From an uncultured Thermodesulfobacteriota bacterium (GTDB lineage Bacteria; Desulfobacterota; WTBG01; CAIYCZ01; CAIRTM01): 64,000 nucleotides of DNA. Below are positions 23,510 through 46,168 of the stretch, piece after piece (within the stretch, counting starts at the first letter, position 1; each line of letters opens with the position of its first letter). The stretch covers positions 4,803-68,802 of the forward strand of contig CAZMHH010000007.1 of the NCBI GenBank assembly GCA_964566035.1, written 5' to 3'. Position numbers and translations under genes: made by a program. The notes beneath the pieces are model-generated. The model saw only the letters and a list, made by a program, of their open reading frames with translations. It was not told the origin of the DNA and ran no database searches.

Positions 23510-24208
23510 ATGCTTGTTACACTAAAAAAACAAATACCAGAAAAAGATAGAATTTACAGTCATTTAGGCAACTCAAGAGCCAGATCCAGGTCAAAATCAA
23601 TAAGGGTGAAAATAAAAAAAATAACTGAAACCCTGCCCGATTATATCGAACCTCGTCTGGTCTACAGTAAATGGCGTGTTGATACAGGAACAGACTGCAT
23701 TAAGTTTGAAAACGGATTGGAGCTAAGAAGCCGAAAATTTGCAATGATTATGAGGCATGCAACTGAAGCGTACTGTTTTGTTGCAACCATAGGCAGTCGT
23801 ATTGACAGGAAAATCAAAAAACTTATGAAAGACAATAAGCTTTCAGATGCTTATTTGCTTGATACGGCAGGATCCTTTGCAATAGAAGATGCTGTTGAGC
23901 AGTTCTGTAATGAAATTCATAAAGAAGCTGAGCAAAAAGCAATGACAACCACAATTCGTTTCAGCCCTGGTTACTGCGACTGTTCTGTAAGTGAACAGCG
24001 CAAGCTTTTTCGTCTTGTAACAGCTGAAAAGATTGGTGTAAGTCTTACCGATGCTTGTCTTATGCAGCCCAGGAAAACAATATCAGGGATTTTTGGCATT
24101 GTTCCTCCCCAAAACATTAAACATTACTCTGCCTATATTCCGTGCAGGGATTGTTCAAGGCAAAAGTGTATGAGCAGAAGAGAAGAATATCAATCAAAAT
24201 CAATATAA
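23510..24208 (+). CDS. stand-alone methionine-synthase (MetH) activation-domain-like protein (AdoMet-binding reactivation module)
   Basis: 'RFSPGYCDC...' and 'IGVSLTDACLMQPRKTISGIFGI' match the Met_synt_B12 activation-domain motifs (RxSPGY and IGx.LTES.mM.P..SVSG). C-terminus carries an extra Cys cluster, CRDCSRQKC. CAGGGACAG ribosome-binding site before the ATG. Confidence 0.55.
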   Translation: MLVTLKKQIPEKDRIYSHLGNSRARSRSKSIRVKIKKITETLPDYIEPRLVYSKWRVDTGTDCIKFENGLELRSRKFAMIMRHATEAYCFVATIGSRIDRKIKKLMKDNKLSDAYLLDTAGSFAIEDAVEQFCNEIHKEAEQKAMTTTIRFSPGYCDCSVSEQRKLFRLVTAEKIGVSLTDACLMQPRKTISGIFGIVPPQNIKHYSAYIPCRDCSRQKCMSRREEYQSKSI

Positions 24209-24252
24209 CAAACCTGCTTGCAGACTCTAAAAAAAACAGGAGATAGATCAGA

Positions 24253-25716
24253 ATGAATATTAGAAAAGGACTCGATGGGGGTCAATATTGCCCATTAAAT
24301 GATGAGGATATAAAAAAAATACATGAAGCCACACTCAGAGTGTTTAGTGAAGTGGGTGTTGAGATAAACCATACTGAAGCCATTGAACTTTTTAAGGGTG
24401 CCGGTGCTGAAGTTGACGGTGATTCCGGAATTGTCCGAATCCCTTCTCACCTGGTTGAAAAATTAGTAGGTATGGCTCCTTCTGAAATTGTGCTGTGCGG
24501 ACGTGATGATGATCAAAGTCTTGACTGCAGGATAGGCGGAACACGTGTCTATATGGGGACCGGCGGAACAGCGCTTCAGGTGCAGGAGTCTGGAAGCAAT
24601 TCAGCCAGGCAGTCAAAGCTTGATGACATTGTTAACATGGCACGTCTTGTTGACAAACTTGAAAATATTCATTTCTATATGTTAAATGTCTATCCAAATG
24701 ACCTTGAAAACAGAAATGTTGATGTCAACCGTTTTGGAGCTGCTCTGAATAACACACAGAAACATATAATGGGAGGAGTCTATAGTGTTGAAGGAATACG
24801 CAATGTTGTCAGAATGGCTGAAATTATAGCAGGGTCTCCTGAAAAGCTGAGGGAACGCCCATTTATTTCAATGGTGGCATGTATTATAAGCCCTTTCAAG
24901 GTTGATGAGAGTTATGGAGAGCTGGCCATAGAGGTAGCCAGGCAGGGCATCCCGCTGGTGGTTCCTGCTGAGCCGTTGTGCGGAGCTACTGCCCCGATTA
25001 CACTTGCCGGAAATCTGTTGGTGCAGAATGTTGATACTCTTACAGGGGTTATGCTCAGCCAGTTGGTCAACCCCGGCACACCTATTTTATACGGTTGTAT
25101 TTCATCAATTACAGATCTGAGAGACATGAAATATCTTGCAGGAGCTGTTGAAATGGGTCTTTTGAATGCTGCATCTTCACAGATGGCAAGATTTTACGGT
25201 ATCCCGATTTATGCCACAGCAGGCATGTCTGATTCCAAGGTAAATGATGCTCAGGTTGGTTATGAGTCTGCAATGACAAACCTTATGGTTGCTCTTGCCG
25301 GAGCAAATTTTATTCACGATGCAGCGGGTTTTTTAGAGTTCTGTAAAACTGCCTCATATGATAAGCTTGTGATAGACAATGAAATTATTGGTATGGTTAT
25401 GCGTGCTGTTGAAGGAATTAAGGTTAGTGATGAGACACTTGCCTTTGATGAGATTAAAAAGGCAGGACCGGGGGGTAATTTCATCTCCTCGCGATTAACA
25501 AGGAAACTCATGCGTTCAGAACAATATAAACCCTGTTTCAGCGACAGGGAGAACAGAGATGTTTGGATGGAAGGCGGGTCAAAGGATGCTGCAACCAGGG
25601 CAACTGAGCATGTCGGCAGGGTTTTGGGTAAGGCTCGAGAAGCTGTTTTGCCCGCAGAGATCAGAAAATCTATTTTAGCTGAAATACAGGGGATTTGTCC
25701 CGAGATAATGCAATAA
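24253..25716 (+). CDS. MttB-superfamily (trimethylamine methyltransferase family) corrinoid-dependent methyltransferase, non-pyrrolysine type (MtgB-like)
   Basis: Full-length, 487 aa, with no internal stop codon, so no in-frame UAG. MttB-family TIM-barrel motifs are spread through the protein. Confidence 0.8.
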   Translation: MNIRKGLDGGQYCPLNDEDIKKIHEATLRVFSEVGVEINHTEAIELFKGAGAEVDGDSGIVRIPSHLVEKLVGMAPSEIVLCGRDDDQSLDCRIGGTRVYMGTGGTALQVQESGSNSARQSKLDDIVNMARLVDKLENIHFYMLNVYPNDLENRNVDVNRFGAALNNTQKHIMGGVYSVEGIRNVVRMAEIIAGSPEKLRERPFISMVACIISPFKVDESYGELAIEVARQGIPLVVPAEPLCGATAPITLAGNLLVQNVDTLTGVMLSQLVNPGTPILYGCISSITDLRDMKYLAGAVEMGLLNAASSQMARFYGIPIYATAGMSDSKVNDAQVGYESAMTNLMVALAGANFIHDAAGFLEFCKTASYDKLVIDNEIIGMVMRAVEGIKVSDETLAFDEIKKAGPGGNFISSRLTRKLMRSEQYKPCFSDRENRDVWMEGGSKDAATRATEHVGRVLGKAREAVLPAEIRKSILAEIQGICPEIMQ

Positions 25717-25743
25717 AAGAAGGGAAGGAGGAACAGATTAATC

Positions 25744-26535
25744 ATGATTATGATAGGTGAGAAGATAAATGCAACAATTAAGCGTGTTAAAAGCATTGTT
25801 GAGAATAGAGATAATGACGGGCTTGTTCAGCTTGCCAAAGCTCAGTCAGAGGCAGGAGCTGATATAATTGATGTAAATGTTGGAACAGGAACAGGAACTC
25901 AAGCAGATGAAATTGATGCAATACAGTGGGCAGTTGAATTGATTCAGCAGCATGTGGATAAACCGCTTTGTATTGACAGTGCCGACAAGGCTGTTCTTGA
26001 AGCTGGCTTGAAAAAAATAGACGGAAGACAGAGCATGATCAATTCCGTAAAGGCAGAAGAAAACAATATGGATGATATTATTCCTTTGGCAAAAGAGTTC
26101 AATTCCATGCTGGTAGCTCTTCCAATGGATGAAAAAGGTATTCCTGCTACTACTGCTGAAAGGGTTGATGTTTGCAGACAACTAATAAACCACTGTAAAA
26201 AATACGGGTTTTCTGTTGATAAACTATTCTTTGATCCGCTGGTGCTGCCGATATCATCTGATATTACTCAAGGGGCTATCACCCTGGACACACTTGCTGC
26301 TATCAAAAAAACATTTCCAGAGTCTAAAACAGTTATGGGGCTCTCAAATGTTTCCTATGGGCTTCCGGAGAGAAAGAAGCTCAACGCCGGTTTTATGTAT
26401 ATGGCAATTTATGCAGGTCTGGATGCTGTTATTGCAAATCCTATGGACGATGAGATTCAAATGGCTATAAAAGTGGCAGAAGCTTTAACCGGTAAAGATC
26501 CCCGTTGCAGGAGATATACAAGGGCTTTGAGATAA
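25744..26535 (+). CDS. pterin-binding methyltransferase (methylcorrinoid:tetrahydrofolate methyltransferase, MtgA/MtrH/AcsE-like)
   Basis: 'IMIGEKINATI' pterin-binding-domain start motif and DHPS-like TIM barrel. Positioned between the two mttB paralogs. Confidence 0.7.
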   Translation: MIMIGEKINATIKRVKSIVENRDNDGLVQLAKAQSEAGADIIDVNVGTGTGTQADEIDAIQWAVELIQQHVDKPLCIDSADKAVLEAGLKKIDGRQSMINSVKAEENNMDDIIPLAKEFNSMLVALPMDEKGIPATTAERVDVCRQLINHCKKYGFSVDKLFFDPLVLPISSDITQGAITLDTLAAIKKTFPESKTVMGLSNVSYGLPERKKLNAGFMYMAIYAGLDAVIANPMDDEIQMAIKVAEALTGKDPRCRRYTRALR

Positions 26536-26724
26536 TTTATAAGCCGATAAGCAAAAAAGCTCGCAGCTGGTAGCTCATAGAAAAACAAAAAGTTGGAGTC
26601 AAAAAAACGCCTGAAAACACTGGTAATAAGGCTATTTCTCTGCACTGAAATATTTTTTGTCAGTAAGTGCAAAAAAAATGAAATCTAAGACATTAAATAA
26701 TCTGTGCAATAGGAAGGATTTTTT

Positions 26725-28266
26725 ATGATTGATAATGAAGAATTTAGAAAGGGTATAGTTGTAAAGCCCTACAATAGACTTACCGAGCAGCAGGTTGGGC
26801 TTCTTGACAGAACCTCTCTTGATATACTGAAGGATCCTGGAATATGGTGTTATAATAAAAGAGCTGCAGATCTTTTTCATGAAAACGGAGCAGTGGTAAG
26901 GGAAGATTCTGATCAAAAGGGACATTTGTGGAGGATAAGCATTCCATCAGAACTTGTAAAAAAATCAGTTAAAAAAGCTCCTTCACGGTTTGTACTTGGA
27001 GCGCGCAATCCTGCAAACAGACTTTTGCTGGATGCCCAGGTACCAAGAGTATATTTTGGCTCAGGGTCTGAAACAAATGTCTGGATTGAGACCGAACTGG
27101 AAGACTTTGTAAGTCGCAGAGAACCGGGTATTAAGGTAAGGCTTCCGCGCTACAGGCAACTGCGAGGCAGCGCAGCTTTGCTGTGCAGGGCTGCAAAAAT
27201 ATGTGACAAGCTTGATAATCTTGATTTTTTTATAAGACCTGTAAATATTCAGGATGAAGGAATAACAGAAGATAATCATGATGTGAACAAGTTTTTTGCA
27301 AGTTTGAACAATATAACCAAACATGTTCAGGCAGGGTTGACAAAACTTGAAAAACTTGACGATGTTGTCCGTATGGCTGAGCTTATAGCAGGTGGAGCGG
27401 ACAATCTCAGAAAAAATCCTTTGATATCCTTTATTGCATGTGTGTTTAAAAGCCCCCTGCAAATGGTTGAAGATACAACCGATAAGGTTTTTGCAATAGT
27501 AGAGGCGGGTCTTCCGCTTGTGATATCATCATCACCGCAGGGGGGTTCCACAGCACCCATTCAGGAGACAGGAATGGTTGCCCAGATAAATGCAGAGATA
27601 CTTGCCGGTATAACTTTCACTCAGCTTATAAAACCCGGAGCACCTGTATTATATGGCAGTGTTCCAGTGCGTGCCCGCATGGATGACCTGCACGATTTAT
27701 ATGGCTGCCCTGAATTTAATCAGTATAATCATGACTGTGTTCAGTTGGCACGTCATTATCAGGTGCCGTGTTATTCCACAGCAGGAGTGGCTGATGCAAA
27801 AGTTCCCGGTATGCAGGCTTCATTTGAAAAGCTTCTTACTCATCTATATATGACAATGACCGGAGCCCAATATATTCATTATGCATTTGGGCTTTTGAAC
27901 AGGACTAATTCATTTTGTCCTGTTCAGGCTGTTATAGACAATGAACATATAGATAAGATTAAACAGAGTCTTAGAAATCCGGATGTCAGTGAACAGACCT
28001 ACGAAGAAACACTTAAGATGGTTCGCAAGGTTATGAATTCTCCCAATCGTCTTTATGCGCGTCATGCCCGCAAAGCAATTCATTCAGGACTTGTATCAGA
28101 GCCATATAAGTTTTCTGGCAGCGGCGCCGAGGACAAGGTTATTGAATATGCACTTAAGGAACTGTCCACCATAGAAGCAGAACCGGCAAGCCATATTCCT
28201 CATGAGATTCAGGACAGGATATTTGCTCAGATTTCCGGTCTTCTGCCGATACTGAAGAGCTGTTAA
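26725..28266 (+). CDS. second MttB-superfamily corrinoid-dependent methyltransferase (non-pyrrolysine)
   Basis: 513 aa, no internal stop. Collinear with the first paralog in the conserved blocks but highly diverged from it. Confidence 0.8.
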   Translation: MIDNEEFRKGIVVKPYNRLTEQQVGLLDRTSLDILKDPGIWCYNKRAADLFHENGAVVREDSDQKGHLWRISIPSELVKKSVKKAPSRFVLGARNPANRLLLDAQVPRVYFGSGSETNVWIETELEDFVSRREPGIKVRLPRYRQLRGSAALLCRAAKICDKLDNLDFFIRPVNIQDEGITEDNHDVNKFFASLNNITKHVQAGLTKLEKLDDVVRMAELIAGGADNLRKNPLISFIACVFKSPLQMVEDTTDKVFAIVEAGLPLVISSSPQGGSTAPIQETGMVAQINAEILAGITFTQLIKPGAPVLYGSVPVRARMDDLHDLYGCPEFNQYNHDCVQLARHYQVPCYSTAGVADAKVPGMQASFEKLLTHLYMTMTGAQYIHYAFGLLNRTNSFCPVQAVIDNEHIDKIKQSLRNPDVSEQTYEETLKMVRKVMNSPNRLYARHARKAIHSGLVSEPYKFSGSGAEDKVIEYALKELSTIEAEPASHIPHEIQDRIFAQISGLLPILKSC

Positions 28267-28381
28267 TAAAAAGGCGATTGTTTTATTCTTCTTTGTTGCC
28301 TTTATTGACTATATGGCAAATATGCAGATTATGATTATTGGGTTAATATTTTAAATACATAACTTTTTAAACAAGGAGCAA

Positions 28382-29083
28382 ATGATGGAAAACGATCTTA
28401 TAGAACAGATAAAATTTAATATTCTTCAGGGACGTATTGAAGCCGAAGATGAAGGGTTTGATGAAGGACTTGAGGGAAAGCCTGCTGTGACAGAATTGAT
28501 TTCCGAGGCATTGAAACAAAAGATTGACACTAAGGAAATAGTAACCGGAGCGCTTAATTCAGCAATGGAAATTGTTGGAGAAAAATTTGAAAAAGGGGAG
28601 TATCTTATTCCTGATATGCTTGCATCTGCTGAGTGTGTGGGGGCTGCCATGGATTTGATTGCTCCTCAGATGGTTGATGATGGCATTGAAAACAAGGGAA
28701 CTTTTGTTATTGCAACCGTCAAGGGAGACTTGCATGATATTGGTAAAAACATAGTGTCTATTATGGTCAAGGGTGCTGGTTATGATGTTGTGGATCTGGG
28801 AACAGATGTTGCTTCAGATCGAATTGCAAAGGAAGTAAAGGACAGAAAGGCTGCATTTCTTGGTTTATCAGCGCTTCTAACAACAACGATGAGGGAGATG
28901 GAAACAGTTATAGGCATGCTGGAAGATACAGGTATTCGAAAAAGTGTAAAGGTGCTGATAGGCGGAGCCCCTACATCAAAAGACTTTGCAAGCCAGATTG
29001 GTGCTGATGCTCACTGCAATGATGCATTTGAGGCGATAGCTGTTTTAAAGTCACTGGCTAATATAAAATCAGTTGCAGCCTAA
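28382..29083 (+). CDS. cobalamin-binding corrinoid protein (MtgC/MttC-like)
   Basis: B12-binding N-terminal cap domain plus Rossmann domain with 'DLHDIGKNIV' (DxHxxG) and 'GGAP' motifs. Confidence 0.9.
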   Translation: MMENDLIEQIKFNILQGRIEAEDEGFDEGLEGKPAVTELISEALKQKIDTKEIVTGALNSAMEIVGEKFEKGEYLIPDMLASAECVGAAMDLIAPQMVDDGIENKGTFVIATVKGDLHDIGKNIVSIMVKGAGYDVVDLGTDVASDRIAKEVKDRKAAFLGLSALLTTTMREMETVIGMLEDTGIRKSVKVLIGGAPTSKDFASQIGADAHCNDAFEAIAVLKSLANIKSVAA

Positions 29084-29101: not shown

Positions 29102-30361
29102 ATGGTAGAAAAGAAAGCATATTCAGAAGCAGTAGATACAGGCAAATATAACAAGACTACCGGGCTGCTGGGAAAGTACGATAATGTCAGACGATTCTGG
29201 GAGGATCAGTTGAGCGGTATTTTTTTAAGGCCTGCTCTAAATGAACTTGTTAAAAACAAAACTGACAGGCTCGAAAGGATACGGATTCTTGATCTTGGAT
29301 GCGGAAGCGGAGATGCCTACGATCTGATTATGAATATATATACAAAAGACCCGGGGATTTATGATTATATAACCGGTGCAATTACACACGAAAATTTGCA
29401 GGAATATGTCGGTCTTGATGTGAATGAAGATCTGTTGGAGCAGGCTAGACAGTATTGGGCAGGCAACGCGAAGCTCCGTTTTGTTACAGGAGATCTGAGT
29501 CAGGGTTTGCCGGAATCATCGGTTGGAAATGAAGCTTTTGATATGTATTATACATCCTATGGAACACTGGCTCATTTTACCGATGAGGTTAATACCCGTC
29601 TTATTGCCGATATTTTTAAACATGCATCAAATGGGGCCTTGTTTGTAGGAGATTGGCTTGGCAGATATTCCTATGAATGGCAGGATCTGTGGCACCATTC
29701 TGCAAATGAGGAATATTTTATGGATTACCGCATATCTTATATTTATGAAAAAGATGAGCGGAATAATGCTGATATTGCCTCTTTTCCACTGCGACTGATG
29801 ACACGTGATGAAATAATGAAAATAATAAATAAAGCTTCAGATAGGTCAGGGGTTAAGGTTGTTCCGGTCTGTTTTTATGACCGTTCAATATTTGTCGGAC
29901 GTCATCTTGAAACAGGAGATTATAACCGCTATTGCCCGCCAATGCGAAGCAGGGTAAACTCTCTGTTTGAATCTTATATGCGGACAGATCTTTCATCAAT
30001 CAAATTTGATTATGTTCCGAGACAAGGGTTTGACCACCTTAATAATTTTTTTGAAATGTATTTCATGTCCTGCAATGCCCTTGTTGATTATACAATTTCA
30101 CTGCTTAGCCAATATGAAAGTGAATCAGGTCTTATTAAGTCTGAACCGGAAATAAAGTCTTATTTCCCCGAACCCTTGAAGGAGGTTATGCGCACAATGC
30201 GCAAGGTTGTTGAAGGGGTCGGATCTCTGAAATACGGTGAGGTTCGTGCAAATTTTATAGAACCTCAACTGGGTTATGCATTGCGGGAGCTTGAGATAAA
30301 ACTGCAACCTGGAACCGGAGTTGGACATAGTCTGGCCGGTATATTCAGAATAGAAAAATAG
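29102..30361 (+). CDS. class I SAM-dependent methyltransferase with ~200-aa C-terminal extension
   Basis: Motif I 'ILDLGCGSGDAYD' and post-I acidic residue 'VGLDVNEDLL'. Lies 18 bp after the corrinoid protein gene. Confidence 0.65.
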   Translation: MVEKKAYSEAVDTGKYNKTTGLLGKYDNVRRFWEDQLSGIFLRPALNELVKNKTDRLERIRILDLGCGSGDAYDLIMNIYTKDPGIYDYITGAITHENLQEYVGLDVNEDLLEQARQYWAGNAKLRFVTGDLSQGLPESSVGNEAFDMYYTSYGTLAHFTDEVNTRLIADIFKHASNGALFVGDWLGRYSYEWQDLWHHSANEEYFMDYRISYIYEKDERNNADIASFPLRLMTRDEIMKIINKASDRSGVKVVPVCFYDRSIFVGRHLETGDYNRYCPPMRSRVNSLFESYMRTDLSSIKFDYVPRQGFDHLNNFFEMYFMSCNALVDYTISLLSQYESESGLIKSEPEIKSYFPEPLKEVMRTMRKVVEGVGSLKYGEVRANFIEPQLGYALRELEIKLQPGTGVGHSLAGIFRIEK

Positions 30362-30578: not shown

Positions 30579-31838
30579 ATGGAAATCTCAGAGATAGTCA
30601 GTGGCTTAACCTCAAGATCAAAAAAAGGCGCAGCGGAAATAGGAGCAGCACCTTCGATGGTTAAGAACATAATTCTTAACAAAATGGCTGATTTGCTGGA
30701 AAAATACTCTAATGATGTTATTGCCGCAAATAAATCAGACCTTAACTCTGCACTGGATAAAGGTGTTGAGGGATCTCTCTATGAAAGACTCAAATTTGAT
30801 GAGGCAAAGATAAAAGGCAGGGTAAATTCACTGAAAAAAATTACCCAACTACCGGACCCTGTAGGACAGGTGATAGAGGAAAAACAGCTTGAAAACGGGT
30901 TGACCGCTTCAAGGATAAGGGTGCCAATAGGTGTACTGCTTATGATATATGAAGCACGACCCCATGTAACAGTTAATGCAGGAGCTTTTTGCATAAAATC
31001 AGGAAATGCAATTATCTGTAAAGGTGGCAGTGAAGCGTTGCTGTGCAACAGGTTATTGGGCAAGTTGTGGTCAGATGCGCTTATGCATGCAGGTGTCTCC
31101 TCTGATGTTGTGCAGGTGGCAGAACTCAATCACGAGGAAGTTGCACAGTTGCTGACCATGAAAGATGATATTAATCTTGTAATCCCGCGCGGTGGAAAGC
31201 AGCTAATCAGAACAGTGGCTGAAAAATCATCTGTTCCGGTTATAAAACATTTTGAGGGAATTTGTCATATCTATATAGGAGACAGGGCAGACTACAGTAA
31301 GGCATTGAAAATTGTACTTGATTCAAAAATTCTTATGCCGGCAGTGTGTAATGCAGCTGAAACAGTACTGGTAGACTATAGCATGAAGGGGATTTTGCCT
31401 GATATGATTGCAAGCCTTCAGAAAAATGGTGTAGAGGTTCGTGGATGTCCGGAGGTTTGCAGCATTTTTGACGGAATAAAAGAGGCAACAGAGGATGACT
31501 GGTATACCGAATATCTTGACAGTATCTATTCTGTAAGGGTTGTTGATGGGATTCATGAGGCAATTGCCCATATTACCAAATATGGCAGTGGACATACTGA
31601 TGTAATTGTTACAGAAAATTATTCAGAGTCAAGACGTTTTGTTCGGGAAGTGGATTCATCGGTTGTTATTGTTAATGCTTCTACCATGTTTTGTGACGGT
31701 GAGACTCTTGGTATGGGGGCTGAGATAGGTATTTCAACTGACAGACTTCACGCCAGAGGTCCGATGGGTTTAAACGAGCTTACAACTTATAAGCACATTA
31801 TCATGGGAGATGGTCAGACAATGGGGCAGGGTTTTTAA
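30579..31838 (+). CDS. proA: glutamate-5-semialdehyde dehydrogenase (gamma-glutamyl phosphate reductase)
   Basis: 'IRVPIGVLLMIYEARPHVTVNAGAFCIKSGNAIICKGGSEA' and a catalytic Cys region typical of ProA. Confidence 0.9.
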   Translation: MEISEIVSGLTSRSKKGAAEIGAAPSMVKNIILNKMADLLEKYSNDVIAANKSDLNSALDKGVEGSLYERLKFDEAKIKGRVNSLKKITQLPDPVGQVIEEKQLENGLTASRIRVPIGVLLMIYEARPHVTVNAGAFCIKSGNAIICKGGSEALLCNRLLGKLWSDALMHAGVSSDVVQVAELNHEEVAQLLTMKDDINLVIPRGGKQLIRTVAEKSSVPVIKHFEGICHIYIGDRADYSKALKIVLDSKILMPAVCNAAETVLVDYSMKGILPDMIASLQKNGVEVRGCPEVCSIFDGIKEATEDDWYTEYLDSIYSVRVVDGIHEAIAHITKYGSGHTDVIVTENYSESRRFVREVDSSVVIVNASTMFCDGETLGMGAEIGISTDRLHARGPMGLNELTTYKHIIMGDGQTMGQGF

Positions 31839-31972: not shown

Positions 31973-33367
31973 TTGTTTTGCTTAAGAGCCAATAGCAGAA
32001 CAGCTATTATGTCAAAGATATATGATTATTACATGAAAAGATTTAATGCCTCTCAGGTTGGAGTGGATGCAGCTCAGAGACGCATAGGATCAGAACTTAA
32101 ATTTCCGCTTGTATGTGAAGATGGGTCAGCTGTAAGTCGTGATGTGGTAGATGTTTTATGGTCATATCTGCAGGGGCTTGGATGGAAACCGGTTGTTGAT
32201 GGAATGACTAAAAAAATAGTAGGAGCTCAGCGGCCCGGTGAGAAAAATGATACCATTGCATCATGTGAAACCGGTTATTGTAAAACAGAATTTTCACTTT
32301 CCCATGTTGCTGACCTTAACCAGTTGAATAAAGATATAGAAGATCTTAAACACATTCTTCAGAATTTTTCAGAACAACACCGTGTCAGATTTCTTGGATA
32401 TGGAATACATCCGGTTTCACACCCAGGCAAAAAGTTATTGATGAAAAAAAGCCGTTCAGGTGTATGGGACAAATTGTTTGGAGCCAATCGACATATCGCT
32501 CATGAGGATGGTGATGATGTGCATCTTTTCACTGTTAACGCTGCAAGCCATACTCATATAAGTGTAGCCCCAGATGAGGCCGTAAAAACCGTAAATGTGC
32601 TTAATGGTTTTGCAGGAGCCCAGATTGCACTCAATGCCAATTCAAGTATCTGGAAAGGTGATATTGATCCCCGATATAAATGTGTTGCTGAAAAATTCTG
32701 GGATTGGTGGATGTCTGACAGAAAAAGGATTGGTGTTCCTGAAGTTCCGTTTCGGGATATGCGCCATTATATTGATACCGTATCAGAGTTCAGGCCAGTG
32801 TTTATTCTGAGAGAAGGGAAACCATTGCTCCTTAGCAGGTATGATTCCTTTGCAGGATATTTTGACGAAACCGATGCCATAGCTGTTGATACTGATAATA
32901 AAGAAGTTAATGTTGTCCCGGAGCATGGAGATTTTGATCTGCACTGCACCTGTTACTGGTATAATGCAAGGATATCGCGCTATTTTACAGTTGAAAACAG
33001 AATTAATGATCAGCAGCCTCCCGCAGAATTGATGACTGTTCCTGCAATAACCCTTGGTCTTGTATCAGCACTTGATGAAGCATGGGAAGAGGTTAGAGTC
33101 TGGGACTGGATTGAGATTCGAAAAAGCAGGGAGACAGCCTGTGAAAAAGCTATGGATGGTGCTATTGGAAAGGTTTCACTTGTTGAGTATATCCAACGAA
33201 TGCTGTCTGTTGCAAGGCTTGGTTTAGAACGAAGGGGCAGAGGAGAAGAGATGTTTCTTGCACCTCTTTTTGAACGTCTTCAAAACAGGAAGTGCCCTGC
33301 AGAAGAATCCGAAAGAGTGTTTAGAAAAGAGGGTATGGCAGGATTTCTTAATTCGGTAACAATATAA
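31973..33367 (+). CDS. glutamate--cysteine ligase family 2 (GCS2/YbdK/EgtA-like carboxylate-amine ligase), putative
   Basis: N-terminal 'IGSELKFPLV' resembles the GCS2 'GxExEFxLVD' motif. The ORF starts at a TTG, since the track uses alternative start codons. The true start could instead be the ATG at 32009. Confidence 0.45.
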   Translation: MFCLRANSRTAIMSKIYDYYMKRFNASQVGVDAAQRRIGSELKFPLVCEDGSAVSRDVVDVLWSYLQGLGWKPVVDGMTKKIVGAQRPGEKNDTIASCETGYCKTEFSLSHVADLNQLNKDIEDLKHILQNFSEQHRVRFLGYGIHPVSHPGKKLLMKKSRSGVWDKLFGANRHIAHEDGDDVHLFTVNAASHTHISVAPDEAVKTVNVLNGFAGAQIALNANSSIWKGDIDPRYKCVAEKFWDWWMSDRKRIGVPEVPFRDMRHYIDTVSEFRPVFILREGKPLLLSRYDSFAGYFDETDAIAVDTDNKEVNVVPEHGDFDLHCTCYWYNARISRYFTVENRINDQQPPAELMTVPAITLGLVSALDEAWEEVRVWDWIEIRKSRETACEKAMDGAIGKVSLVEYIQRMLSVARLGLERRGRGEEMFLAPLFERLQNRKCPAEESERVFRKEGMAGFLNSVTI

Positions 33368-33385
33368 CATGACTATTATTAGAAA

Positions 33386-34627
33386 ATGAACAATACAAAT
33401 ACATCTCAGCCTACCTTGGCGCTTGATTTGCCGCCAGGCATGACAATAGAAGATTTGATATATCCTGTTTACTATCTTGATACAACTCAAATCAACCTTA
33501 ATGATTCTGACAGTAAAGCAATAGTAAACAATGCGTTATATGATTTATTCTGTCTTGCCCATGATGGTGCTGTTAAGGGACAAACTCTCATTAAACTGCA
33601 TATTGGCGAACCACGTTGCAAGACAAGGTTGCGTCCGGAATATACTGCTTCTATTAAGCGTTTCCTTGAACATCAGGGAGCAGACAGTGTTGTTGCCGGT
33701 GATTCAACGGTTGCATATACAGGAATGCGCGGGCATAAACAGAACCCCATAGATGATGTTTCCAGTTATATGAACCTTGCCGAAAAGCATGGCTGGTCTG
33801 TGAATGGAACTGCGGGGGTTCCGTTCGTTGTGCTTGATAGACCTTGTTCTGCAATACAAGGTGTATATGAGTTCGGTGAGGAACAGCAATGCAGAAAGGT
33901 GGACGGGGTAGCAAGATATACAGACTTTTTCTTATCCGGTGGATTTGCTGAAGCGGATTTTATTGTTAACAGTGCACACCTGACACTGCATGGTTTGGCA
34001 GGACTGGCAGGTTGTGTTAAGAACATTGCAATGGGGTGCGCCGGTTTGACAGGAAAATTGAGAATGCATCAGTTTCTTCTTCCCGGATTTGATGGGGATT
34101 TATGCACGCGTTGCGGGATATGTGTTGCAAACTGTCCGGAAGATGCTCTATCATTAACTGATACTGATCTATTTCCCTGGGTTGCTGAAGGGGTATGTAT
34201 CGGGTGCGGGGAGTGTGTTTCATTATGTCCAAGTAAGGCTGTAAAGCTGTCCGGAAAAGATATCAATGACTGGTCAAGGGGAGAGGAGACACTTCCCGTA
34301 CGTATGGCAGATTATACCATAGGGCTCATGAACGGATTCTGGGATAAATCCCTGCATGTGCTGCATATGTATAGCATAACGGAACTTTGTGACTGTGTGG
34401 ATAAGTTTCAAAAACCATTTGTGGATGATTTAGGCTTTGTTGTCAGTAAAAATCCCTTTGCGGTTGATCTTGTAAGTGCCGACCTGCTCAGCAGAAAACA
34501 TTCAGAAAGCGTTTCAGTAAATATTGATAAGAAAATTAAATCTGCGGAGTTAATAGCTGATTATGTAAAAGAAAAATATGGTATTTTCAGTAAAGTTCCT
34601 GTGCATAAAGTTGTAATAAAAAAATGA
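33386..34627 (+). CDS. DUF362-family protein with inserted 2x[4Fe-4S] ferredoxin domain
   Basis: Two 'CxxCxxCxxxCP' motifs (CTRCGICVANCP and CIGCGECVSLCP). DUF362-like N- and C-terminal blocks. Confidence 0.55.
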   Translation: MNNTNTSQPTLALDLPPGMTIEDLIYPVYYLDTTQINLNDSDSKAIVNNALYDLFCLAHDGAVKGQTLIKLHIGEPRCKTRLRPEYTASIKRFLEHQGADSVVAGDSTVAYTGMRGHKQNPIDDVSSYMNLAEKHGWSVNGTAGVPFVVLDRPCSAIQGVYEFGEEQQCRKVDGVARYTDFFLSGGFAEADFIVNSAHLTLHGLAGLAGCVKNIAMGCAGLTGKLRMHQFLLPGFDGDLCTRCGICVANCPEDALSLTDTDLFPWVAEGVCIGCGECVSLCPSKAVKLSGKDINDWSRGEETLPVRMADYTIGLMNGFWDKSLHVLHMYSITELCDCVDKFQKPFVDDLGFVVSKNPFAVDLVSADLLSRKHSESVSVNIDKKIKSAELIADYVKEKYGIFSKVPVHKVVIKK

Positions 34628-34805
34628 AGCTGTTTGAAGCAATCTGCTAAGTGCAGTTTTTTAAGTGAAAGCACCTCTTCCTTGAGCAAAGACTTACAAT
34701 CAGAAAATTGATACCTGACAACAGATCATCTGCAAATATCTATGTGCTGTAATTTAAAGGCAAAGCCCAAGCAGTTTATCTACACTATTTTTTGCAGGAT
34801 ATTCA

Positions 34806-35780
34806 ATGATACGGTTTGAAGAGATATCCAAGGTATATCCGGGAAAAGTAAAGGCGGTTTCCGGTATATCACTTGATGTTTCAGCCGGAGAAACGCTTGT
34901 ATTGCTTGGAACAAGCGGAAGCGGAAAGACTACCCTTTTAAAGATGGTGAACAGATTGATAGAACCATCAGGAGGGCGTATCCTGATTGAGCAACAGGAT
35001 ATTATGGATTATAATCCTGTAGAGCTAAGGCGAAGGATTGGATATGCTATTCAGCATATAGGGCTGTTTCCCCATATGACTGTCGCAGAGAATATTGCTG
35101 TTGTTCCTCAACTGTTGAAATGGTCTCGTAAAAACATACTTCAACAAACTGAAAAGTTATTATCCATGACAGGTCTCGCACCGGATGAATTTAAGGACAG
35201 ATATCCGTTCCAGTTGAGCGGGGGCCAAAGGCAGAGGGTTGGGGTAGCAAGGGCATTGGCTGCCGATCCTGTAATTGTGCTTATGGATGAACCTTTTGGT
35301 GCATTAGATCCTCTCACCCGAGAAAGCCTGCAGGATGAGTTTATAGAGCTTGAAGCTGATATTAAAAAAACTATTCTTTTTGTCACCCATGATGTGTTTG
35401 AGGCTGTAAAAATGGGAGACAGGGTTGCGCTTATAGACAACGGCATTCTGCAACAGCTTTCTACCCCTTCAGAACTTATAGAAAATCCTGCCAACGAATT
35501 TGTTTCATCTTTCCTGGGCCAGCATCGGTTTCAGTTATTACTTCTTACAAAAAAACTTAAAGATGTAATTAAAGCCGGTGAAACAGAGTGGATTGAACAA
35601 ACAAAGCCGGAAGTCTATCTTGATGCAGAACAGTCAATTATTAAGGCGCTTGACACATTCGGGAAAACCAAAACAAAAACCTTGCCCGTGTTTGAGGGGG
35701 AATCAAATAATATAGGAACTCTTGCAAAAAAGGAGTTGCTTGCTATTATTTCAGATATTCTGGGGGATATCAGTCAATAG
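34806..35780 (+). CDS. ABC transporter ATP-binding protein, osmoprotectant (glycine betaine/choline/carnitine) uptake type (OpuCA/OpuBA-like)
   Basis: Walker A 'GTSGSGKTT', signature 'LSGGQRQRV' and Walker B 'LMDEPFGALD'. C-terminal regulatory extension. Confidence 0.85.
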   Translation: MIRFEEISKVYPGKVKAVSGISLDVSAGETLVLLGTSGSGKTTLLKMVNRLIEPSGGRILIEQQDIMDYNPVELRRRIGYAIQHIGLFPHMTVAENIAVVPQLLKWSRKNILQQTEKLLSMTGLAPDEFKDRYPFQLSGGQRQRVGVARALAADPVIVLMDEPFGALDPLTRESLQDEFIELEADIKKTILFVTHDVFEAVKMGDRVALIDNGILQQLSTPSELIENPANEFVSSFLGQHRFQLLLLTKKLKDVIKAGETEWIEQTKPEVYLDAEQSIIKALDTFGKTKTKTLPVFEGESNNIGTLAKKELLAIISDILGDISQ

Positions 35781-35845
35781 TTATAATACAGCGTGGACTG
35801 TATTTTCCGGAAGAACACTTAAAACCTAATACAGGTTGATAAAAA

Positions 35846-36514
35846 ATGGATTTGGCAACCTTCTGGCAGAGAATGGGGCAGGATATAATACATGCAACGA
35901 TAGAACATATTTATCTTACCTTTATCGCTCTTATTTTGGCCTTGTTTATCGCTATCCCTCTGGGTATATATCTCACGAGAACCAGATATCAAAAACTTGC
36001 AGATATTGTTCTCAATATTTTTGGTGTGGTTCAGACAATTCCAAGTCTTGCTCTTATTGCCCTCATAGTTGTCATTTTTGCTTTAGCAGGTTTGCCAACT
36101 ATAGGTACGTTGCCGGGTATAGTAGCCCTTGTTATGTATGCCCTGCTTCCGTTATTGCGCAATACTTATACCGGCATTAAGCAGGTTGATCCAGCTCTTA
36201 TAGAAGTAGCCAGGGGAATGGGGATGAGAGACTATCAAATGCTTTTTACTGTCGAACTGCCTTTGGCTCTGCCTGTAATTACAGCAGGTATAAGGATTTC
36301 AACGGTCTGGACGATAGGTGTGGCAACACTTGTGGGGCTTATCGGGGCAGGAGGGTTGGGTGATCTTATTATCAGGGGACTGAGAACAATACAGATTGAT
36401 TATCTTTTAGCCGGCACTGTACCTGCTGCTATTCTTGCGCTCTTGGCGGATTTTATAATAAGCAGGCTTGAGCGCTGGCTAGTGCCTGAAGGGCTTTCCA
36501 AAAACAGTCAGTAG
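35846..36514 (+). CDS. ABC transporter permease (OpuCB/OpuBB-like)
   Basis: Five or six TM segments. 'EVARGMGMRDYQMLFTVELPLA' is the EAA loop. Confidence 0.85.
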   Translation: MDLATFWQRMGQDIIHATIEHIYLTFIALILALFIAIPLGIYLTRTRYQKLADIVLNIFGVVQTIPSLALIALIVVIFALAGLPTIGTLPGIVALVMYALLPLLRNTYTGIKQVDPALIEVARGMGMRDYQMLFTVELPLALPVITAGIRISTVWTIGVATLVGLIGAGGLGDLIIRGLRTIQIDYLLAGTVPAAILALLADFIISRLERWLVPEGLSKNSQ

Positions 36515-36569
36515 AGAAAAACGGGGATCACAAAACTGACAAACAGATCGGATATGCGAGACGATTTTT

Positions 36570-37511
36570 ATGACATTAAAAACAAAACTTTTAACTATTG
36601 TCGGAGTCAGTATCCTTATCGGAGCATTGCTTTTCGCAACTCAGAAGGATAAGGTAACCGGTTTCAGACCAGCTTTTGATGCGGAATTCTTAGCCAGACC
36701 CGACGGATACAGGGGGCTTAAAAAAATATATAAACTTGAATTTCCTGTGCGGCCATTGCAAATGGAACCGGGACTTATGTATAGAGCATTAAAGGATAAA
36801 GCTGTTAATGTAATTAACGCATTTGCAACTGACGGCAGAATTCCTGCCTACAACCTTATTACCCTTGAAGATGACAGAGGTTTTTTCCCCCCTTATTATG
36901 CAGCGCCAGTTATCAGGCGTGATACACTTGATAAATATCCTGAACTTGAATCCGTACTCAATGTATTGGCAGGGAGGATAACACAAAAAAAGATGCAACA
37001 ACTCAACTATAAGGTGGATGAAAAGCGCATGAGAGCAGCAGATGTAGCTGCTGATTTTCTGGTTTCAGAAGGGCTGATACAGACAGGAAATATCTCTTCG
37101 CAGCCGACGGCAGGGAGAGTTGCAGTTGGGGCGAAACACTTTACCGAGCAGGAAATATTGGGTGAAATGCTGTCGTTGCTCATAGAACAAAATACCAGCC
37201 TACAGGTAAAACGTTATTTGAATCTTGGAGGAACACTAATATGTTTTAACGCTTTAAGAACAGGGGGTATAGACATATATGCGGAATATACAGGTACAGG
37301 CCTTATCAACATTTTAAATGAAGATATGGTTTCTGACCCTGAACAAGCCTATCAAAAAGTAAAAGAAGAGTTTAAGGAGCAGTTTGATATTTTATGGCTT
37401 AAACCCTTTGGTTTCAATAATACCTATACACTTACCATGCGCAAAGATGAGGCTGAAAAACTTGCAATAGAGTCCATTTCAGACCTTTCTGAATTTCTTC
37501 AAAATCAATAA
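36570..37511 (+). CDS. glycine betaine/quaternary amine ABC substrate-binding protein (OpuAC-fold, OpuCC-like)
   Basis: Signal/TM anchor. 'NAFATDGRIPAYNLITLEDDRGFFPPYYAAPVIR' is typical of OpuCC/OpuBC-type binding proteins. Confidence 0.8.
   Translation: MTLKTKLLTIVGVSILIGALLFATQKDKVTGFRPAFDAEFLARPDGYRGLKKIYKLEFPVRPLQMEPGLMYRALKDKAVNVINAFATDGRIPAYNLITLEDDRGFFPPYYAAPVIRRDTLDKYPELESVLNVLAGRITQKKMQQLNYKVDEKRMRAADVAADFLVSEGLIQTGNISSQPTAGRVAVGAKHFTEQEILGEMLSLLIEQNTSLQVKRYLNLGGTLICFNALRTGGIDIYAEYTGTGLINILNEDMVSDPEQAYQKVKEEFKEQFDILWLKPFGFNNTYTLTMRKDEAEKLAIESISDLSEFLQNQ

Positions 37512-44512: not shown

Positions 44513-46168
<1,656 letters not shown>

Follow-up and report, generated by a model that had tools for sequence, protein, structure and literature searches.

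Two non-pyrrolysine MttB paralogs and a dedicated SAM-dependent methyltransferase in a widespread operon family with osmoadaptation neighbors

Gene content of the locus

The window, the whole 64,000-nucleotide stretch analyzed here, comes from an uncultured Thermodesulfobacteriota bacterium and contains all 12 genes that a first-pass annotation had named between positions 23510 and 37511. Based on the open reading frame list and domain profiles, each ORF lies where it had been placed, all are on the plus strand, and the domain matches are strong. Chance is ruled out by the E-values and by synteny across about 100 related loci (see below). The features are:

23083..23111, plus strand: putative promoter-like site, TTGACA-17-TATACT, 11/12 match by consensus scan only
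23510..24208, plus strand: TM0269/MetH-type reactivation (activation-domain) protein, 232 aa (PF02965, E 2.3e-9)
24253..25716, plus strand: MttB1, MttB-a clade, non-Pyl, 487 aa (PF06253, 345 bits)
25744..26535, plus strand: pterin-binding methyl-THF:corrinoid methyltransferase, 263 aa (PF00809, E 6.9e-28)
26725..28266, plus strand: MttB2, MttB-b clade, non-Pyl, 513 aa (PF06253, 186 bits)
28382..29083, plus strand: corrinoid (B12-binding) protein, 233 aa (PF02607 and PF02310)
29102..30361, plus strand: class I SAM-dependent methyltransferase, 419 aa (weak generic Pfam matches; motif I ILDLGCGSG)
30579..31838, plus strand: ProA (gamma-glutamyl phosphate reductase), 419 aa (NF001221, 516.5 bits, cutoff 289)
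31973..33367, plus strand: GCS2-like ATP-dependent carboxylate-amine ligase, 464 aa (PF04107, weak at 22.2 bits, cutoff 21)
33386..34627, plus strand: DUF362 protein with two [4Fe-4S] motifs, 413 aa (PF04015 and Fer4 families)
34806..37511, plus strand: betaine/choline-family ABC importer, three genes (PF00005, PF00528, PF04069)
34806-35780, plus strand: importer ATPase (PF00005)
35846-36514, plus strand: importer permease (PF00528)
36570-37511, plus strand: importer OpuAC-family binding protein (PF04069, 208 bits)

The promoter-like site falls within the 420-bp gap 5' of the first gene, that of the MetH-activation protein. An Rfam scan upstream of the operon (22900-23600) found no riboswitch, and a scan of 24208-37511 found no terminator-like site between genes. 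A methionine-biosynthesis-like cluster lies 7 kb downstream of the operon in the same window.

The MetH-activation protein aligns over nearly its full length (residues 15-196) to Thermotoga maritima TM0269 (PDB 1j6r, E 1.7e-9) and retains the RxSPGYxD and PRKTI motifs; the cassette has this MetH-type activator and no RamA-type activase. The pterin-binding methyltransferase resembles MtgA, AcsE and the MetH pterin module, and scores 285.9 bits against NF005719 (cutoff 259). The corrinoid protein carries a DLHDIG motif at residue 116, its nearest NCBIfam model being MtgC_2 (189 bits, under the cutoff of 370), and the MetH-like modules match TIGR02082 (E 4e-41 and 4.8e-40). As previously noted from the sequence, the gene content has one corrinoid protein and one MtgA-like enzyme common to two diverged MttB paralogs. 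The SAM methyltransferase belongs to an uncharacterized family, and structure searches with it gave no substrate clue.

Among the accessory genes, the GCS2-like ligase matches the plant-type glutamate-cysteine ligase model TIGR01436 over its full length (E 2.3e-13) as well as PDB 2gwc/6gmo (E 8e-5), and the DUF362 protein has CxxCxxCxxxC motifs at 240 and 271. A scan of the larger ORFs of the window revealed neither proB nor proC. The importer had been called OpuC-type; the link to betaine-type transport stands, but the label is loose: a single permease is present instead of two, the binding protein comes closest to OsmF (147.7 bits, cutoff 400), and the ATPase scores 315 bits against the proV subfamily model (cutoff 326.6).

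Conservation across related loci and phyla

The locus is one copy of a widespread, hitherto undescribed operon family. In about 100 related loci, with order and presence counted only where there was enough flank, the cassette has the same order throughout: MetH-activation protein, MttB1, MtgA-like enzyme, MttB2, corrinoid protein and 419-aa SAM methyltransferase. The MetH-activation protein is the first cassette gene in 48 of 49 loci, and upstream of the SAM methyltransferase lie the corrinoid protein (83/83 loci), MttB2 (69/69), MtgA (62/62) and MttB1 (55/55), with median intergenic gaps of 27-68 nt. Hosts of this type I cassette include Desulfobacterota, Nitrospirota and others. The SAM methyltransferase is followed by an AsnB-like gene in 60 of 74 loci (81%) and by ProA in 4 of the 74; one AsnB subtype exceeds the asparagine synthase B cutoff (574 versus 499 bits). 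MetK (10 loci) and AhcY (5 loci), one or both of which occur in about 10% of loci, frequently lie within the operon, with the SAM methyltransferase on one side and AsnB on the other. A betaine-type transporter is present in 29 of 96 related loci and is co-oriented in L107 and L103.

Three further phylum-level groups also join ProA and the GCS2-like ligase to the MttB pair and SAM methyltransferase, in differing orders. In Pirellulales and similar contigs the order is SDR-ProA-GCS2-MttBa-MttBb-SAM methyltransferase-transporter, with a divergent MarR gene in front, and in Actinomycetota it is ProA-GCS2-MttBa-MttBb-corrinoid protein-SAM methyltransferase. The ProA orthologues that adjoin the MttB pair in Pirellulales and Actinomycetota are 49-54% identical, and the GCS2-like ligase, a conserved partner of ProA, is 36-49% identical to its orthologues in other phyla. 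The DUF362 protein, which stands where the type II clusters carry the SDR, also occurs in loci L002, L025 and L027. Both the corrinoid protein and MtgA are absent from the Planctomycetota cluster. The invariant core is MttB-a and MttB-b with a single dedicated class I SAM methyltransferase after them; one variant locus (L105) lacks MttB-a and has an additional class I methyltransferase upstream.

The neighborhood consists of osmoadaptation genes, not C1-oxidation genes. In particular, related loci carry lysine 2,3-aminomutase and a GNAT acetyltransferase, the pair that makes N-epsilon-acetyl-beta-lysine, together with sucrose-phosphate synthase and phosphatase, TrkHA, MscS, a Na+/H+ exchanger and a ClC channel. 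The accessory genes had been described as atypical and without counterpart in known Mtg/Mtp/Mtc clusters; the latter is correct, and across phyla these genes are obligatory or recurrent partners.

The MttB pair and its characterized relatives

Both paralogs are non-pyrrolysine MttB members, as had been proposed. At the pyrrolysine position MttB1 has ATG (25225, Met) and MttB2 has GTG (27787, Val), neither gene has an in-frame stop, and no Pyl genes were seen within the window. Against TIGR02369 (cutoff 525), MttB1 scores 469.6 bits and MttB2 255 bits; the two are 31% identical, and MttB2 is deeply diverged. The best solved-structure match of MttB1 is the pyrrolysine-dependent MttB (MttB/MttC system) of Methanosarcina barkeri (PDB 7xcl), to which it is somewhat closer than to MtgB (37% versus 34% identity, 288.7 versus 272.2 bits). 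Like that enzyme, it has Tyr at the MtgB R312 position, and the Rfam PYLIS_3 model matches the homologous coding stretch, as in Pyl-MttB; unlike that enzyme, neither paralog has UAG. Despite this likeness, MttB1 falls in its own non-Pyl clade and does not group with pyrrolysine-type TMA methyltransferases, the placement that the first-pass annotation had named as counting against its reading.

MttB-a and MttB-b are two separate clades, each spanning phyla. At MtgB positions Y97/R312/Pyl/H348/F356 the MttB1 signature is G/Y/M/D/C in 15 of 15 aligned type I orthologues; G, Y and D are also retained in other phyla, and the pocket Cys is missing in Planctomycetota and Actinomycetota. The MttB2 signature at these positions, S/Y/V/Y/T, is conserved across four phyla. 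All four glycine-betaine-binding residues of MtgB are replaced in both paralogs, with Tyr for R312 in each. The conserved Cys and His residues are H171, C243 and H355 in MttB-a and H200, C239, C338 and H385 in MttB-b. Homocysteine and CoM methyltransferases have a conserved Cys/His zinc site, and no such site is conserved in either MttB clade. The methyltransferase active sites are the same whether the tail is of the AsnB or the ProA type.

The locus resembles the MtgB-MtgC-MtgA system of Desulfitobacterium hafniense and Acetobacterium woodii, in which a non-Pyl MttB TIM-barrel, a DxHxxG corrinoid protein and a pterin-binding methyltransferase share one operon, with a betaine-type transporter close by. 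It differs in having two obligatory paralogs that belong to other clades, share 34% and 27.5% identity with MtgB and have altered betaine pockets, a MetH/TM0269-type activator instead of RamA, and an obligatory SAM methyltransferase and carboxylate-activating enzymes in an osmoadaptation context. MtpB, MtcB, MtyB and MthB of Eubacterium limosum, whose substrates are proline betaine, carnitine, gamma-butyrobetaine and phosphocholine, likewise are non-Pyl members whose partners are a corrinoid protein and an MtgA-type enzyme, and MthK is a precedent for an accessory enzyme that alters the substrate ahead of demethylation. These systems have no counterpart to the SAM methyltransferase, to AsnB or to the pair of ProA and GCS2-like ligase. 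R312, which binds the acidic group, is kept in every characterized member acting on acidic quaternary amines, including, by their published description, the E. limosum enzymes (PMC13080624).

Split methionine synthases (T. maritima TM0268/TM0269; MtgC/MtgD/MtgE of Phaeobacter and Ruegeria) share the pterin, B12 and stand-alone TM0269-like reactivation proteins, and suggest that several methyltransferase partners could draw on a single corrinoid core; here, however, MttB barrels take the place of the homocysteine-binding module.

An anabolic or remodeling reading

On balance, we lean toward an operon that is anabolic or remodeling rather than purely catabolic. Strict co-occurrence, the AsnB/ProA tails, MetK/AhcY, the osmoadaptation neighbors, the replaced betaine pocket and the MetH-type activator all argue for this. 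More tentatively, the specific mechanism may be one in which a methyl-THF-fed MttB pair N-methylates an amino-acid-type solute and SAM gives the last methyl. We infer the direction of methyl flow, the substrate and product, and what each accessory enzyme does, as follows. The MtgA-like enzyme would move methyl groups from methyl-THF to the corrinoid protein, and MttB-a and MttB-b would transfer them to the amine in the first two N-methylations, each using its own conserved pocket, with the invariant Asp (MttB-a) and Tyr (MttB-b) as candidate general bases. The SAM methyltransferase would perform the last, quaternizing methylation, a step that methyl-THF cannot drive. The TM0269-like protein would return oxidized cobalt to service through SAM-dependent reductive methylation, the route known from MetH. 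A glutamate-type carboxylate may be activated and reduced by the GCS2-like ligase, ProA and the DUF362 protein, so that the carbon skeleton is made or finished; in other lineages AsnB would amidate such a carboxylate. The importer may take up or recapture the same solute class, and the end product would be an N-methylated, amino-acid-derived compatible solute.

The energetics are consistent with this scheme. By an estimate from textbook free energies of methylotrophic methanogenesis, moving a methyl group from methylamines to Co(I) costs about 25 kJ/mol, so methyl-corrinoid N-methylation of primary and secondary amines should be favorable, and the transfer potential of a quaternary N-methyl exceeds that of methyl-THF. 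GSMT/SDMT glycine betaine synthesis clusters, which are linked to metK and ahcY, similarly combine a SAM methyltransferase with SAM synthetase and SAH hydrolase (here in related loci) in an osmoadaptation context, and MetK/AhcY in the operon would be expected of a bulk SAM consumer. Against the anabolic reading, all characterized MttB-family enzymes are, to our knowledge, demethylases, and we know of no case of corrinoid-dependent amine N-methylation in biosynthesis. The frequency of ABC importers and their binding proteins in the operon likewise gives a classical catabolic-operon look, and the substitution argument from L105 has a single locus as its basis. A precedent in favor of the scheme is that corrinoid methyltransferase I enzymes have been reported to be reversible on aryl ethers (PMC13618148). 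Any corrinoid-based reading of the Planctomycetota cluster needs genes elsewhere. The near-canonical AsnB and near-canonical ProA tails point to different carbon skeletons, and since the active sites do not change with them, the tail genes may be parallel osmoadaptation genes and not pathway steps.

Alternative readings

Catabolic quaternary-amine demethylation, as the first-pass annotation had it, is a close rival that we consider somewhat unlikely. From an imported osmolyte (for example, proline betaine), MttB-a and MttB-b would sequentially strip two methyls, which would pass through the shared corrinoid protein and MtgA-like enzyme to THF and oxidation. In this reading the ProA-GCS2-reductase set could oxidize proline to glutamate, with SDR or DUF362, reversed ProA and the GCS2-like enzyme leading through P5C and gamma-glutamyl phosphate. 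Common importers, upstream MarR-type regulators and two distinct conserved active sites, which suit two different substrates, fit this scheme, and every non-Pyl MttB characterized so far is a catabolic demethylase partnered by a corrinoid protein and an MtgA-type enzyme (PMC8604678, PMC12155760, PMC13080624). A plain Mtg/Mtp/Mtc-like locus, however, is not supported, given the loss of the betaine-binding residues, R312 included, the lack of a RamA-type activase and the recurrent accessory genes. A catabolic-only scheme gives no role to the universal SAM methyltransferase, the prevalent AsnB-like genes, MetK or AhcY and does not account for ProA with the GCS2-like ligase as a recurrent partner, and the adjoining genes serve osmolyte synthesis and ion homeostasis. 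A second demethylation would also act on a tertiary amine, for which, without pyrrolysine, we know of no precedent.

Methyl harvesting, in which the MttBs demethylate imported amines to feed the THF/methionine pool via the corrinoid protein and MtgA and so keep up SAM regeneration for the SAM methyltransferase, which would make a different methylated product, is clearly unlikely. In Ruegeria pomeroyi, glycine betaine demethylation and methionine synthesis share a single corrinoid protein and a single pterin module (PMC12478193), and the cassette here is a split MetH minus its homocysteine module, with an importer and, in some operons, MetK and AhcY. Yet none of the annotated related loci has a homocysteine-binding gene (PF02574), swapping one good osmolyte for another is hard to justify, and the constant retention of two paralogs with different pockets is left unexplained.

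It is very unlikely that the six-gene corrinoid cassette, a ProA/GCS2-like proline-synthesis pair and the Opu transporter are separate osmoadaptation units lying side by side. The gaps of 217, 134 and 178 bp in the window before the ProA, GCS2 and ATPase genes would suit such an arrangement, as would a tail that varies by lineage (AsnB or ProA-GCS2-DUF362) with no effect on the active sites; the recurrent linkage of ProA/GCS2 to the MttB pair in other phylum-level groups, the lack of an intergenic terminator-like site in the scanned interval and the short gaps in related loci argue otherwise. Finally, a split cobalamin-dependent methionine synthase with an MttB paralog for its homocysteine-binding barrel is highly improbable, since neither clade conserves the zinc site and one paralog would do, even though the locus has MetH-like modules for pterin binding, B12 binding and activation (TIGR02082; 1j6r), MetK and AhcY are close by in some loci, and the window has its methionine-biosynthesis-like cluster.

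A conserved operon built on two new MttB clades

The locus is a corrinoid methyl-transfer system that is built on two new clades of the MttB superfamily (MttB-a and MttB-b) and has a SAM methyltransferase as its obligatory partner. The 12 co-oriented genes described in the first-pass annotation are all present as listed, and each is confirmed by Pfam or NCBIfam models. The operon and its immediate upstream neighbours are:

23510-37511, + strand: six-gene cassette (MetH-activation protein, MttB1, MtgA-like methyltransferase, MttB2, corrinoid protein, 419-aa SAM methyltransferase), followed by ProA, a GCS2-like ligase, a DUF362 protein with two 4Fe-4S motifs, an ABC ATPase, one permease and an OpuAC-family binding protein
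21912-23089, - strand: two small genes divergent from the operon, one with a type IV pilin-like N-terminal methylation motif

MttB1 (487 aa, clade MttB-a) and MttB2 (513 aa, clade MttB-b) are full-length matches to PF06253 (345 and 186 bits, respectively; cutoff 25). The pterin-binding methyl-THF:corrinoid methyltransferase exceeds the cutoff of NF005719 (285.9 bits; cutoff 259), and the corrinoid protein combines PF02607 (B12-binding_2) with PF02310 (B12-binding) and carries the DxHxxG motif as DLHDIG at residue 116. ProA scores 516.5 bits against an equivalog cutoff of 289 (NF001221); a proB partner was not found, its conserved neighbour being instead the GCS2-like ligase. The importer (PF04069 at 208.3 bits, with PF00005 and PF00528) is predicted from its domains to be a betaine/choline ABC importer of the OpuAC family, and the subtype models stay below their cutoffs (OsmF, 147.7 against 400; proV, 315 against 326.6). 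The best promoter-like site of the window lies 5' of the first operon gene, no terminator-like site was found in the intergenic gaps of the operon, and no Rfam riboswitch was found upstream of the cassette in the window or in seven related loci. The nearest species representative is an uncultured Thermodesulfobacteriota MAG (~70% protein identity), and the contig itself also occurs in the Logan assembly of run SRR15425353.

Distribution of the operon in Desulfobacterota and Nitrospirota

A scan of species-representative genomes with MttB2 identifies 15 loci in Desulfobacterota, Nitrospirota and one Dehalococcoidia, the Desulfobacterota carriers including an Eth-SRB1 MAG, Desulfomonilaceae MAGs, Candidatus Desulfaltia and Desulfatitalea alkaliphila strain M08but. 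The six-gene cassette occurs in identical order in 13 of these loci; the exceptions are one locus whose contig ends upstream of MttB2 (L008) and the incomplete Dehalococcoidia locus (L015), in which MtgA lies 3' of the SAM methyltransferase. The SAM methyltransferase family has 1866 database relatives, of which the best 120 are 61-86% identical and 418-434 aa long; none of the matches listed carries a specific protein name. A metagenome scan with a profile of this enzyme gave 468 relatives, and the loci of 80 of these were examined. Across 96 loci, wherever the contig reaches far enough, the SAM methyltransferase is preceded by the corrinoid protein (83/83) and MttB2 (69/69) and, further upstream, by MtgA (62/62), MttB1 (55/55) and the activation protein (48/49), with median gaps of 27-68 nt within the cassette.

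The genes that follow the cassette are more variable. The gene directly 3' of the SAM methyltransferase is AsnB-like in 60 of 74 loci and ProA in four, and the ProA-GCS2-DUF362 tail of the window recurs in three related loci (L002, L025, L027) and partly in two more (L021, L023). SAM synthetase genes are found in 10 loci and SAH hydrolase genes in five, often between the SAM methyltransferase and AsnB genes. In Desulfoferrobacter suflitae (L017), for instance, MarR, the cassette, two AsnB, MetK and AhcY form one string, flanked by an MscS-type channel and TrkHA. SAM synthetase or SAH hydrolase lies inside or directly after the operon in ~10% of loci (L017 at 11385-17261, L044, L049, L080, L082, L084, L090, L093), and between the two AsnB-like genes in L080, L082 and L084. 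Betaine-type ABC transporter genes accompany 29 of the 96 loci and a MarR regulator 32; the window has no MarR at the position where these 32 relatives carry one.

Some loci contain additional MttB genes. A second set of MtgA-like protein, corrinoid protein and two MttB1-like proteins is found 3' of AsnB in seven loci (L062, L066, L075, L076, L080, L083, L039), and a third MttB is found upstream in L002 and L014. The one in L014 adjoins DUF1638 and a RACo-type activase, the only place in the related loci where these two were seen. These extra sets may be conventional catabolic MttB systems that lie beside the operon.

Versions of the operon in other phyla

Pirellulales and similar contigs (L100, L101, L103, L104, L106) carry a divergent MarR followed by SDR, ProA-like, GCS2-like, MttB-a, MttB-b and SAM methyltransferase genes, and an MFS or ABC/OpuAC transporter as the last gene. 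The corrinoid protein, MtgA and the activation protein are absent from these clusters. On an Actinomycetota contig, ProA-like and GCS2-like genes come first, then MttB-a, MttB-b, the corrinoid protein and the SAM methyltransferase; an MTHFR gene lies close by. The genes that the first-pass annotation took for atypical accessories are recurrent partners across phyla, such as the ProA-like and GCS2-like genes that accompany the MttB pair in both Pirellulales and Actinomycetota.

Table. Identity of orthologues from other phyla to the window proteins
Protein; identity
ProA; 49-54%
GCS2-like ligase; 36-49%
MttB-a; 45-54%
MttB-b; 49-54%
SAM methyltransferase; 45-50%

Since the versions in other phyla retain only subsets of the genes, the universal core of the operon is MttB-a, MttB-b and the SAM methyltransferase. 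In a reduced variant (L105, 7214-11290), a second class I methyltransferase of 294 aa lies upstream of MttB-b and the SAM methyltransferase, and a GNAT/DUF3604 protein comes after them; MttB-a, ProA and GCS2 are absent from it, and the 294-aa protein has no sequence match in the PDB.

Active sites of the two MttB clades

MttB1 is 37% identical to the pyrrolysine-containing MttB of M. barkeri (Pyl-MttB; 7xcl) and 34% identical to D. hafniense MtgB. The corresponding values for MttB2 are 28% and 27.5%, and the two paralogs are 31% identical to each other. In a neighbour-joining tree MttB-a and MttB-b are each monophyletic, span all phyla and stand apart from MtgB and Pyl-MttB, with MttB-b as the deepest branch. 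With MtgB (9yce) and Pyl-MttB (7xcl) as its only references, this tree covers part of the phylogeny called for in the first-pass annotation, and neither paralog groups with Pyl-MttB in it.

To our knowledge, all characterised members of the superfamily are catabolic demethylases of trimethylamine or acidic quaternary amines. In MtgB, the quaternary nitrogen is held by Y97 and F356 and the carboxylate by R312 and H348; the 2026 study that shows this (PMC13080624) also states that every characterised member keeps R312 and that each of them acts on an acidic quaternary amine. We mapped these positions onto the two clades through a phmmer alignment to 9yce.

Table. Residues of MttB-a and MttB-b at active-site positions
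Position; MttB-a; MttB-b
Y97 (MtgB); G; S
R312 (MtgB); Y; Y
Pyl position; M (T or A in other phyla); V
H348 (MtgB); D; Y
F356 (MtgB); C (D or A in other phyla); T, preceded by R

The betaine-binding residues are replaced throughout (Y97/R312/H348/F356 by G/Y/D/C in MttB1 and by S/Y/Y/T in MttB2), and the same replacements are found in all 15 type I orthologues aligned, that is, those of the Desulfobacterota/Nitrospirota version. In particular, a Tyr stands at the R312 position of both paralogs and of every orthologue, across five phylum-level groups. The residue preceding the MttB-b Thr is R, or K in one protein; the window reads N-R here (R393). The aligned residues, which are conserved within each clade, indicate two distinct pockets under strong selection, neither of which resembles a known betaine pocket. 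The substrate of MttB-b may still be acidic, since other arginines (R316, R318) are conserved there.

As the first-pass annotation had stated, neither MttB contains pyrrolysine: both frames are uninterrupted, and the codon aligned with pyrrolysine is ATG in MttB1 (25225) and GTG in MttB2 (27787). Scores against the Pyl-MttB equivalog model TIGR02369 (cutoff 525) are all below the cutoff: 469.6 for MttB1, 431-454 for MttB1 orthologues and 255.1 for MttB2. MtgB of D. hafniense, scored for comparison as a 427-aa fragment, reaches 376.1 bits. The Rfam model PYLIS_3 exceeds its gathering threshold of 38 in MttB1 at 25225-25324 (62.9 bits) and in seven of seven MttB-a orthologues tested (44-59 bits; L017, L019, L024, L025, L029, L045, L069); in MttB2, at 27787-27886, it reaches 26.4 bits. 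We considered and rejected a recoding signal in MttB1, given the AUG codon, several non-canonical model pairs and the same match in every MttB-a orthologue tested. Because all of these orthologues match and the 'UAG' position reads AUG or GUG, the match reflects coding homology, and such matches in MttBs that lack pyrrolysine call for caution in automated pyrrolysine annotation.

The activation protein, SAM methyltransferase and AsnB-like proteins

The activation protein covers the C-terminal portion of the MetH activation domain. Almost all of it can be aligned with TM0269 of T. maritima (1j6r, E 1.7e-9), a separate protein that reactivates a split methionine synthase, and the RxSPGYxD and PRKTI motifs are kept. 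The methionine synthase model TIGR02082 partially matches the pterin (E 4e-41), B12 (E 4.8e-40) and activation (E 7.7e-7) proteins. The homocysteine-binding domain PF02574 was found neither among the window genes scanned nor in any related locus with Pfam annotation. The cassette is a split MetH that has the pterin, B12 and activation modules but lacks the homocysteine barrel. The cassette contains no ATP-dependent reductive activase of the RamA/RACo type, but a TM0269/MetH-type protein instead. A zinc-thiolate site that would allow methylation of homocysteine was sought in both clades, and neither MttB-a nor MttB-b was found to have a conserved Cys/His cluster of the kind that activates homocysteine or CoM (Cys3-type zinc-thiolate).

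The SAM methyltransferase (419 aa) is a class I enzyme with motif I intact. Its AF2 model (pLDDT 86.4, from a 65-sequence alignment) consists of a Rossmann core with large additions; a first model from 32 close homologues was discarded (pLDDT 60.5). Structure searches return generic class I enzymes only, sequence and profile searches of the PDB give weak generic matches only, and specific similarity to GSMT or SDMT beyond the class I fold was not found in sequence or structure. An invariant aromatic-rich loop, DWLGRYSYEWQ.LW, lies directly after strand 4 and might suit a cationic substrate.

The AsnB-like proteins are of two kinds, both of which retain the SGGxDSS loop. The first has an N-terminal Cys and scores 574 bits against the asparagine synthase B cutoff of 499; the second has Ser or Ala in place of this Cys and scores 364 bits. 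In three loci (L003:13525-15084, L017:13003-14526 and L005:11749-13371) the Cys-less proteins begin with MSG or MAG for MCG and keep the PP-loop. Enzymes of the beta-lactam synthetase type likewise have a PP-loop and no N-terminal catalytic Cys. The Cys-less proteins may use a different nucleophile or form an amide intramolecularly.

Osmoadaptation genes near related loci

The neighbourhood of the related loci has a common theme of osmoadaptation. In the Eth-SRB1 MAG (L004), lysine 2,3-aminomutase and a GNAT acetyltransferase, which together are the N-epsilon-acetyl-beta-lysine osmolyte pair, lie directly 3' of AsnB (15500-17649). Other neighbours include sucrose-phosphate synthase and its phosphatase (L100, L104), TrkHA and an MscS-type channel (L017, L010), an Na+/H+ exchanger and GlgE (L014), and a ClC channel (L005, L007).

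Direction of methyl flow

The first-pass annotation had read the locus as one for the demethylation of quaternary amines. A plain catabolic system of the Mtg/Mtp/Mtc type is not borne out by the gene set. A universal SAM methyltransferase would have no role in such a locus; AsnB, which is glutamine-dependent and converts ATP to AMP, is a biosynthetic enzyme; MetK and AhcY inside the operon indicate stoichiometric use of SAM; the activator is of the biosynthetic MetH type; and both MttBs lack the acid-binding arginine (R312) of the family. On balance, we lean towards an operon that is anabolic or remodelling rather than purely catabolic. If it is anabolic, the co-expressed MttBs could not sensibly demethylate its product, and the most coherent direction for them is therefore towards methylation. 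We tentatively propose that the MttBs run in this direction and that the SAM methyltransferase completes a betaine-type solute.

In the proposed scheme, the corrinoid protein, the methyl-THF methyltransferase and the MetH-type reactivator would work with the two MttBs in a SAM-sparing, cobalamin-dependent N-methylation of amines. Of the three methyls of a betaine-type osmolyte, the MttBs would install two, taken directly from methyl-THF; the linked SAM methyltransferase would be left with the final methyl alone, whose transfer is the thermodynamically demanding step. Methyl transfer from methylamines to Co(I) is uphill by ~25 kJ/mol (our own estimate from textbook free energies of methylotrophic methanogenesis), so that a methyl-corrinoid should be able to methylate primary and secondary amines. 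By the same kind of estimate, a quaternary N-methyl has a transfer potential above that of methyl-THF and requires SAM. Two corrinoid-dependent enzymes and one SAM enzyme would match the three methyls of a betaine. On aryl ethers, corrinoid methyltransferase I enzymes are documented to work reversibly (PMC13618148). That the MttBs work 'backwards' as a machine of this kind for a betaine-type osmolyte is nonetheless, in our judgement, a doubtful proposition taken as a whole. Our confidence in the anabolic mechanism is limited because every characterised family member is a demethylase, because binding-protein-dependent importers are common in the operon, because the clusters of Planctomycetota carry no corrinoid genes, and because the AsnB and ProA tails, both near-canonical, point to different skeletons although the pockets of the methyltransferases are constant. 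The tail genes may serve osmoadaptation in parallel and not be successive steps of one pathway.

The demethylase record of the family and the importers are equally what would be expected of sequential demethylation, the alternative put forward in the first-pass annotation. Proline betaine, for example, would be converted to N-methylproline and proline, and oxidation could then proceed through ProA running in reverse. The SAM methyltransferase and the missing R312 fit this alternative poorly, and we regard it as slightly less probable than the anabolic mechanism. What probability remains is shared by three models, namely methyl-harvesting, chance adjacency and a methionine synthase, the last of which has the MetH-like modules in its favour and the lack of a conserved Cys/His zinc site against it.

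Implications for the MttB superfamily

Substrates have been established for only a handful of members of the very large MttB superfamily. Our analysis adds two further, strongly conserved clades that are always paired, lack the acid-binding arginine and are tied to a SAM methyltransferase and carboxylate-activating enzymes. Their carriers are abundant sediment bacteria from the Desulfobacterota, Nitrospirota, Dehalococcoidia, Planctomycetota and Actinomycetota. We found no description of this cluster in the open-access full-text literature, although an earlier description elsewhere is possible; the papers found on mercury methylation, and on the sulfate reducers that partner archaea oxidising methane or alkanes, do not address it. 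Metagenome studies routinely label such genes 'trimethylamine methyltransferase' or 'glycine betaine demethylase', and infer methane precursors or mercury methylation from them. For this group of MttBs these annotations are probably wrong.

If the operon is indeed an N-methylation machine, this would be the first biosynthetic role in the MttB superfamily and the first corrinoid-dependent N-methylation in primary metabolism, and it might lead to a new compatible solute in anaerobes of sediments. An operon that makes an osmolyte would imply both such a solute and, where energy is limiting, a less costly means of amine methylation; a catabolic one would imply new substrates and a pyrrolysine-free way of demethylating further. 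Both direction and substrate should be directly testable, since Desulfatitalea alkaliphila M08but and Desulfoferrobacter suflitae, two of the carriers, bear the names of cultured strains.

Other features of the window

Several gene groups lie outside the operon:

4448-10216, - strand: RND efflux system (outer-membrane factor, AcrB-type pump at 995 bits, membrane-fusion protein)
37866-39464: phytoene-desaturase-family (CrtI-like) flavoprotein (TIGR02734, 486.8 bits), 354 bp after the transporter
44870-53486: methionine/cysteine-biosynthesis-like run (three Cys/Met-metabolism PLP enzymes, a PALP enzyme, an Rrf2 regulator, a histidine-kinase-like protein and an alpha/beta hydrolase, possibly MetX-like)
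54453-63600: cofactor and tRNA-thiolation genes (MnmA-like protein, two radical-SAM/BATS proteins, class V aminotransferase, ThiF, NadA, ThiG)

The run at 44870-53486 begins ~7 kb downstream of the locus, and a link to the methyl cycle is possible. The CrtI-like flavoprotein does not accompany the operon elsewhere, and the higher G+C at 4-10 kb is due to the RND efflux genes.
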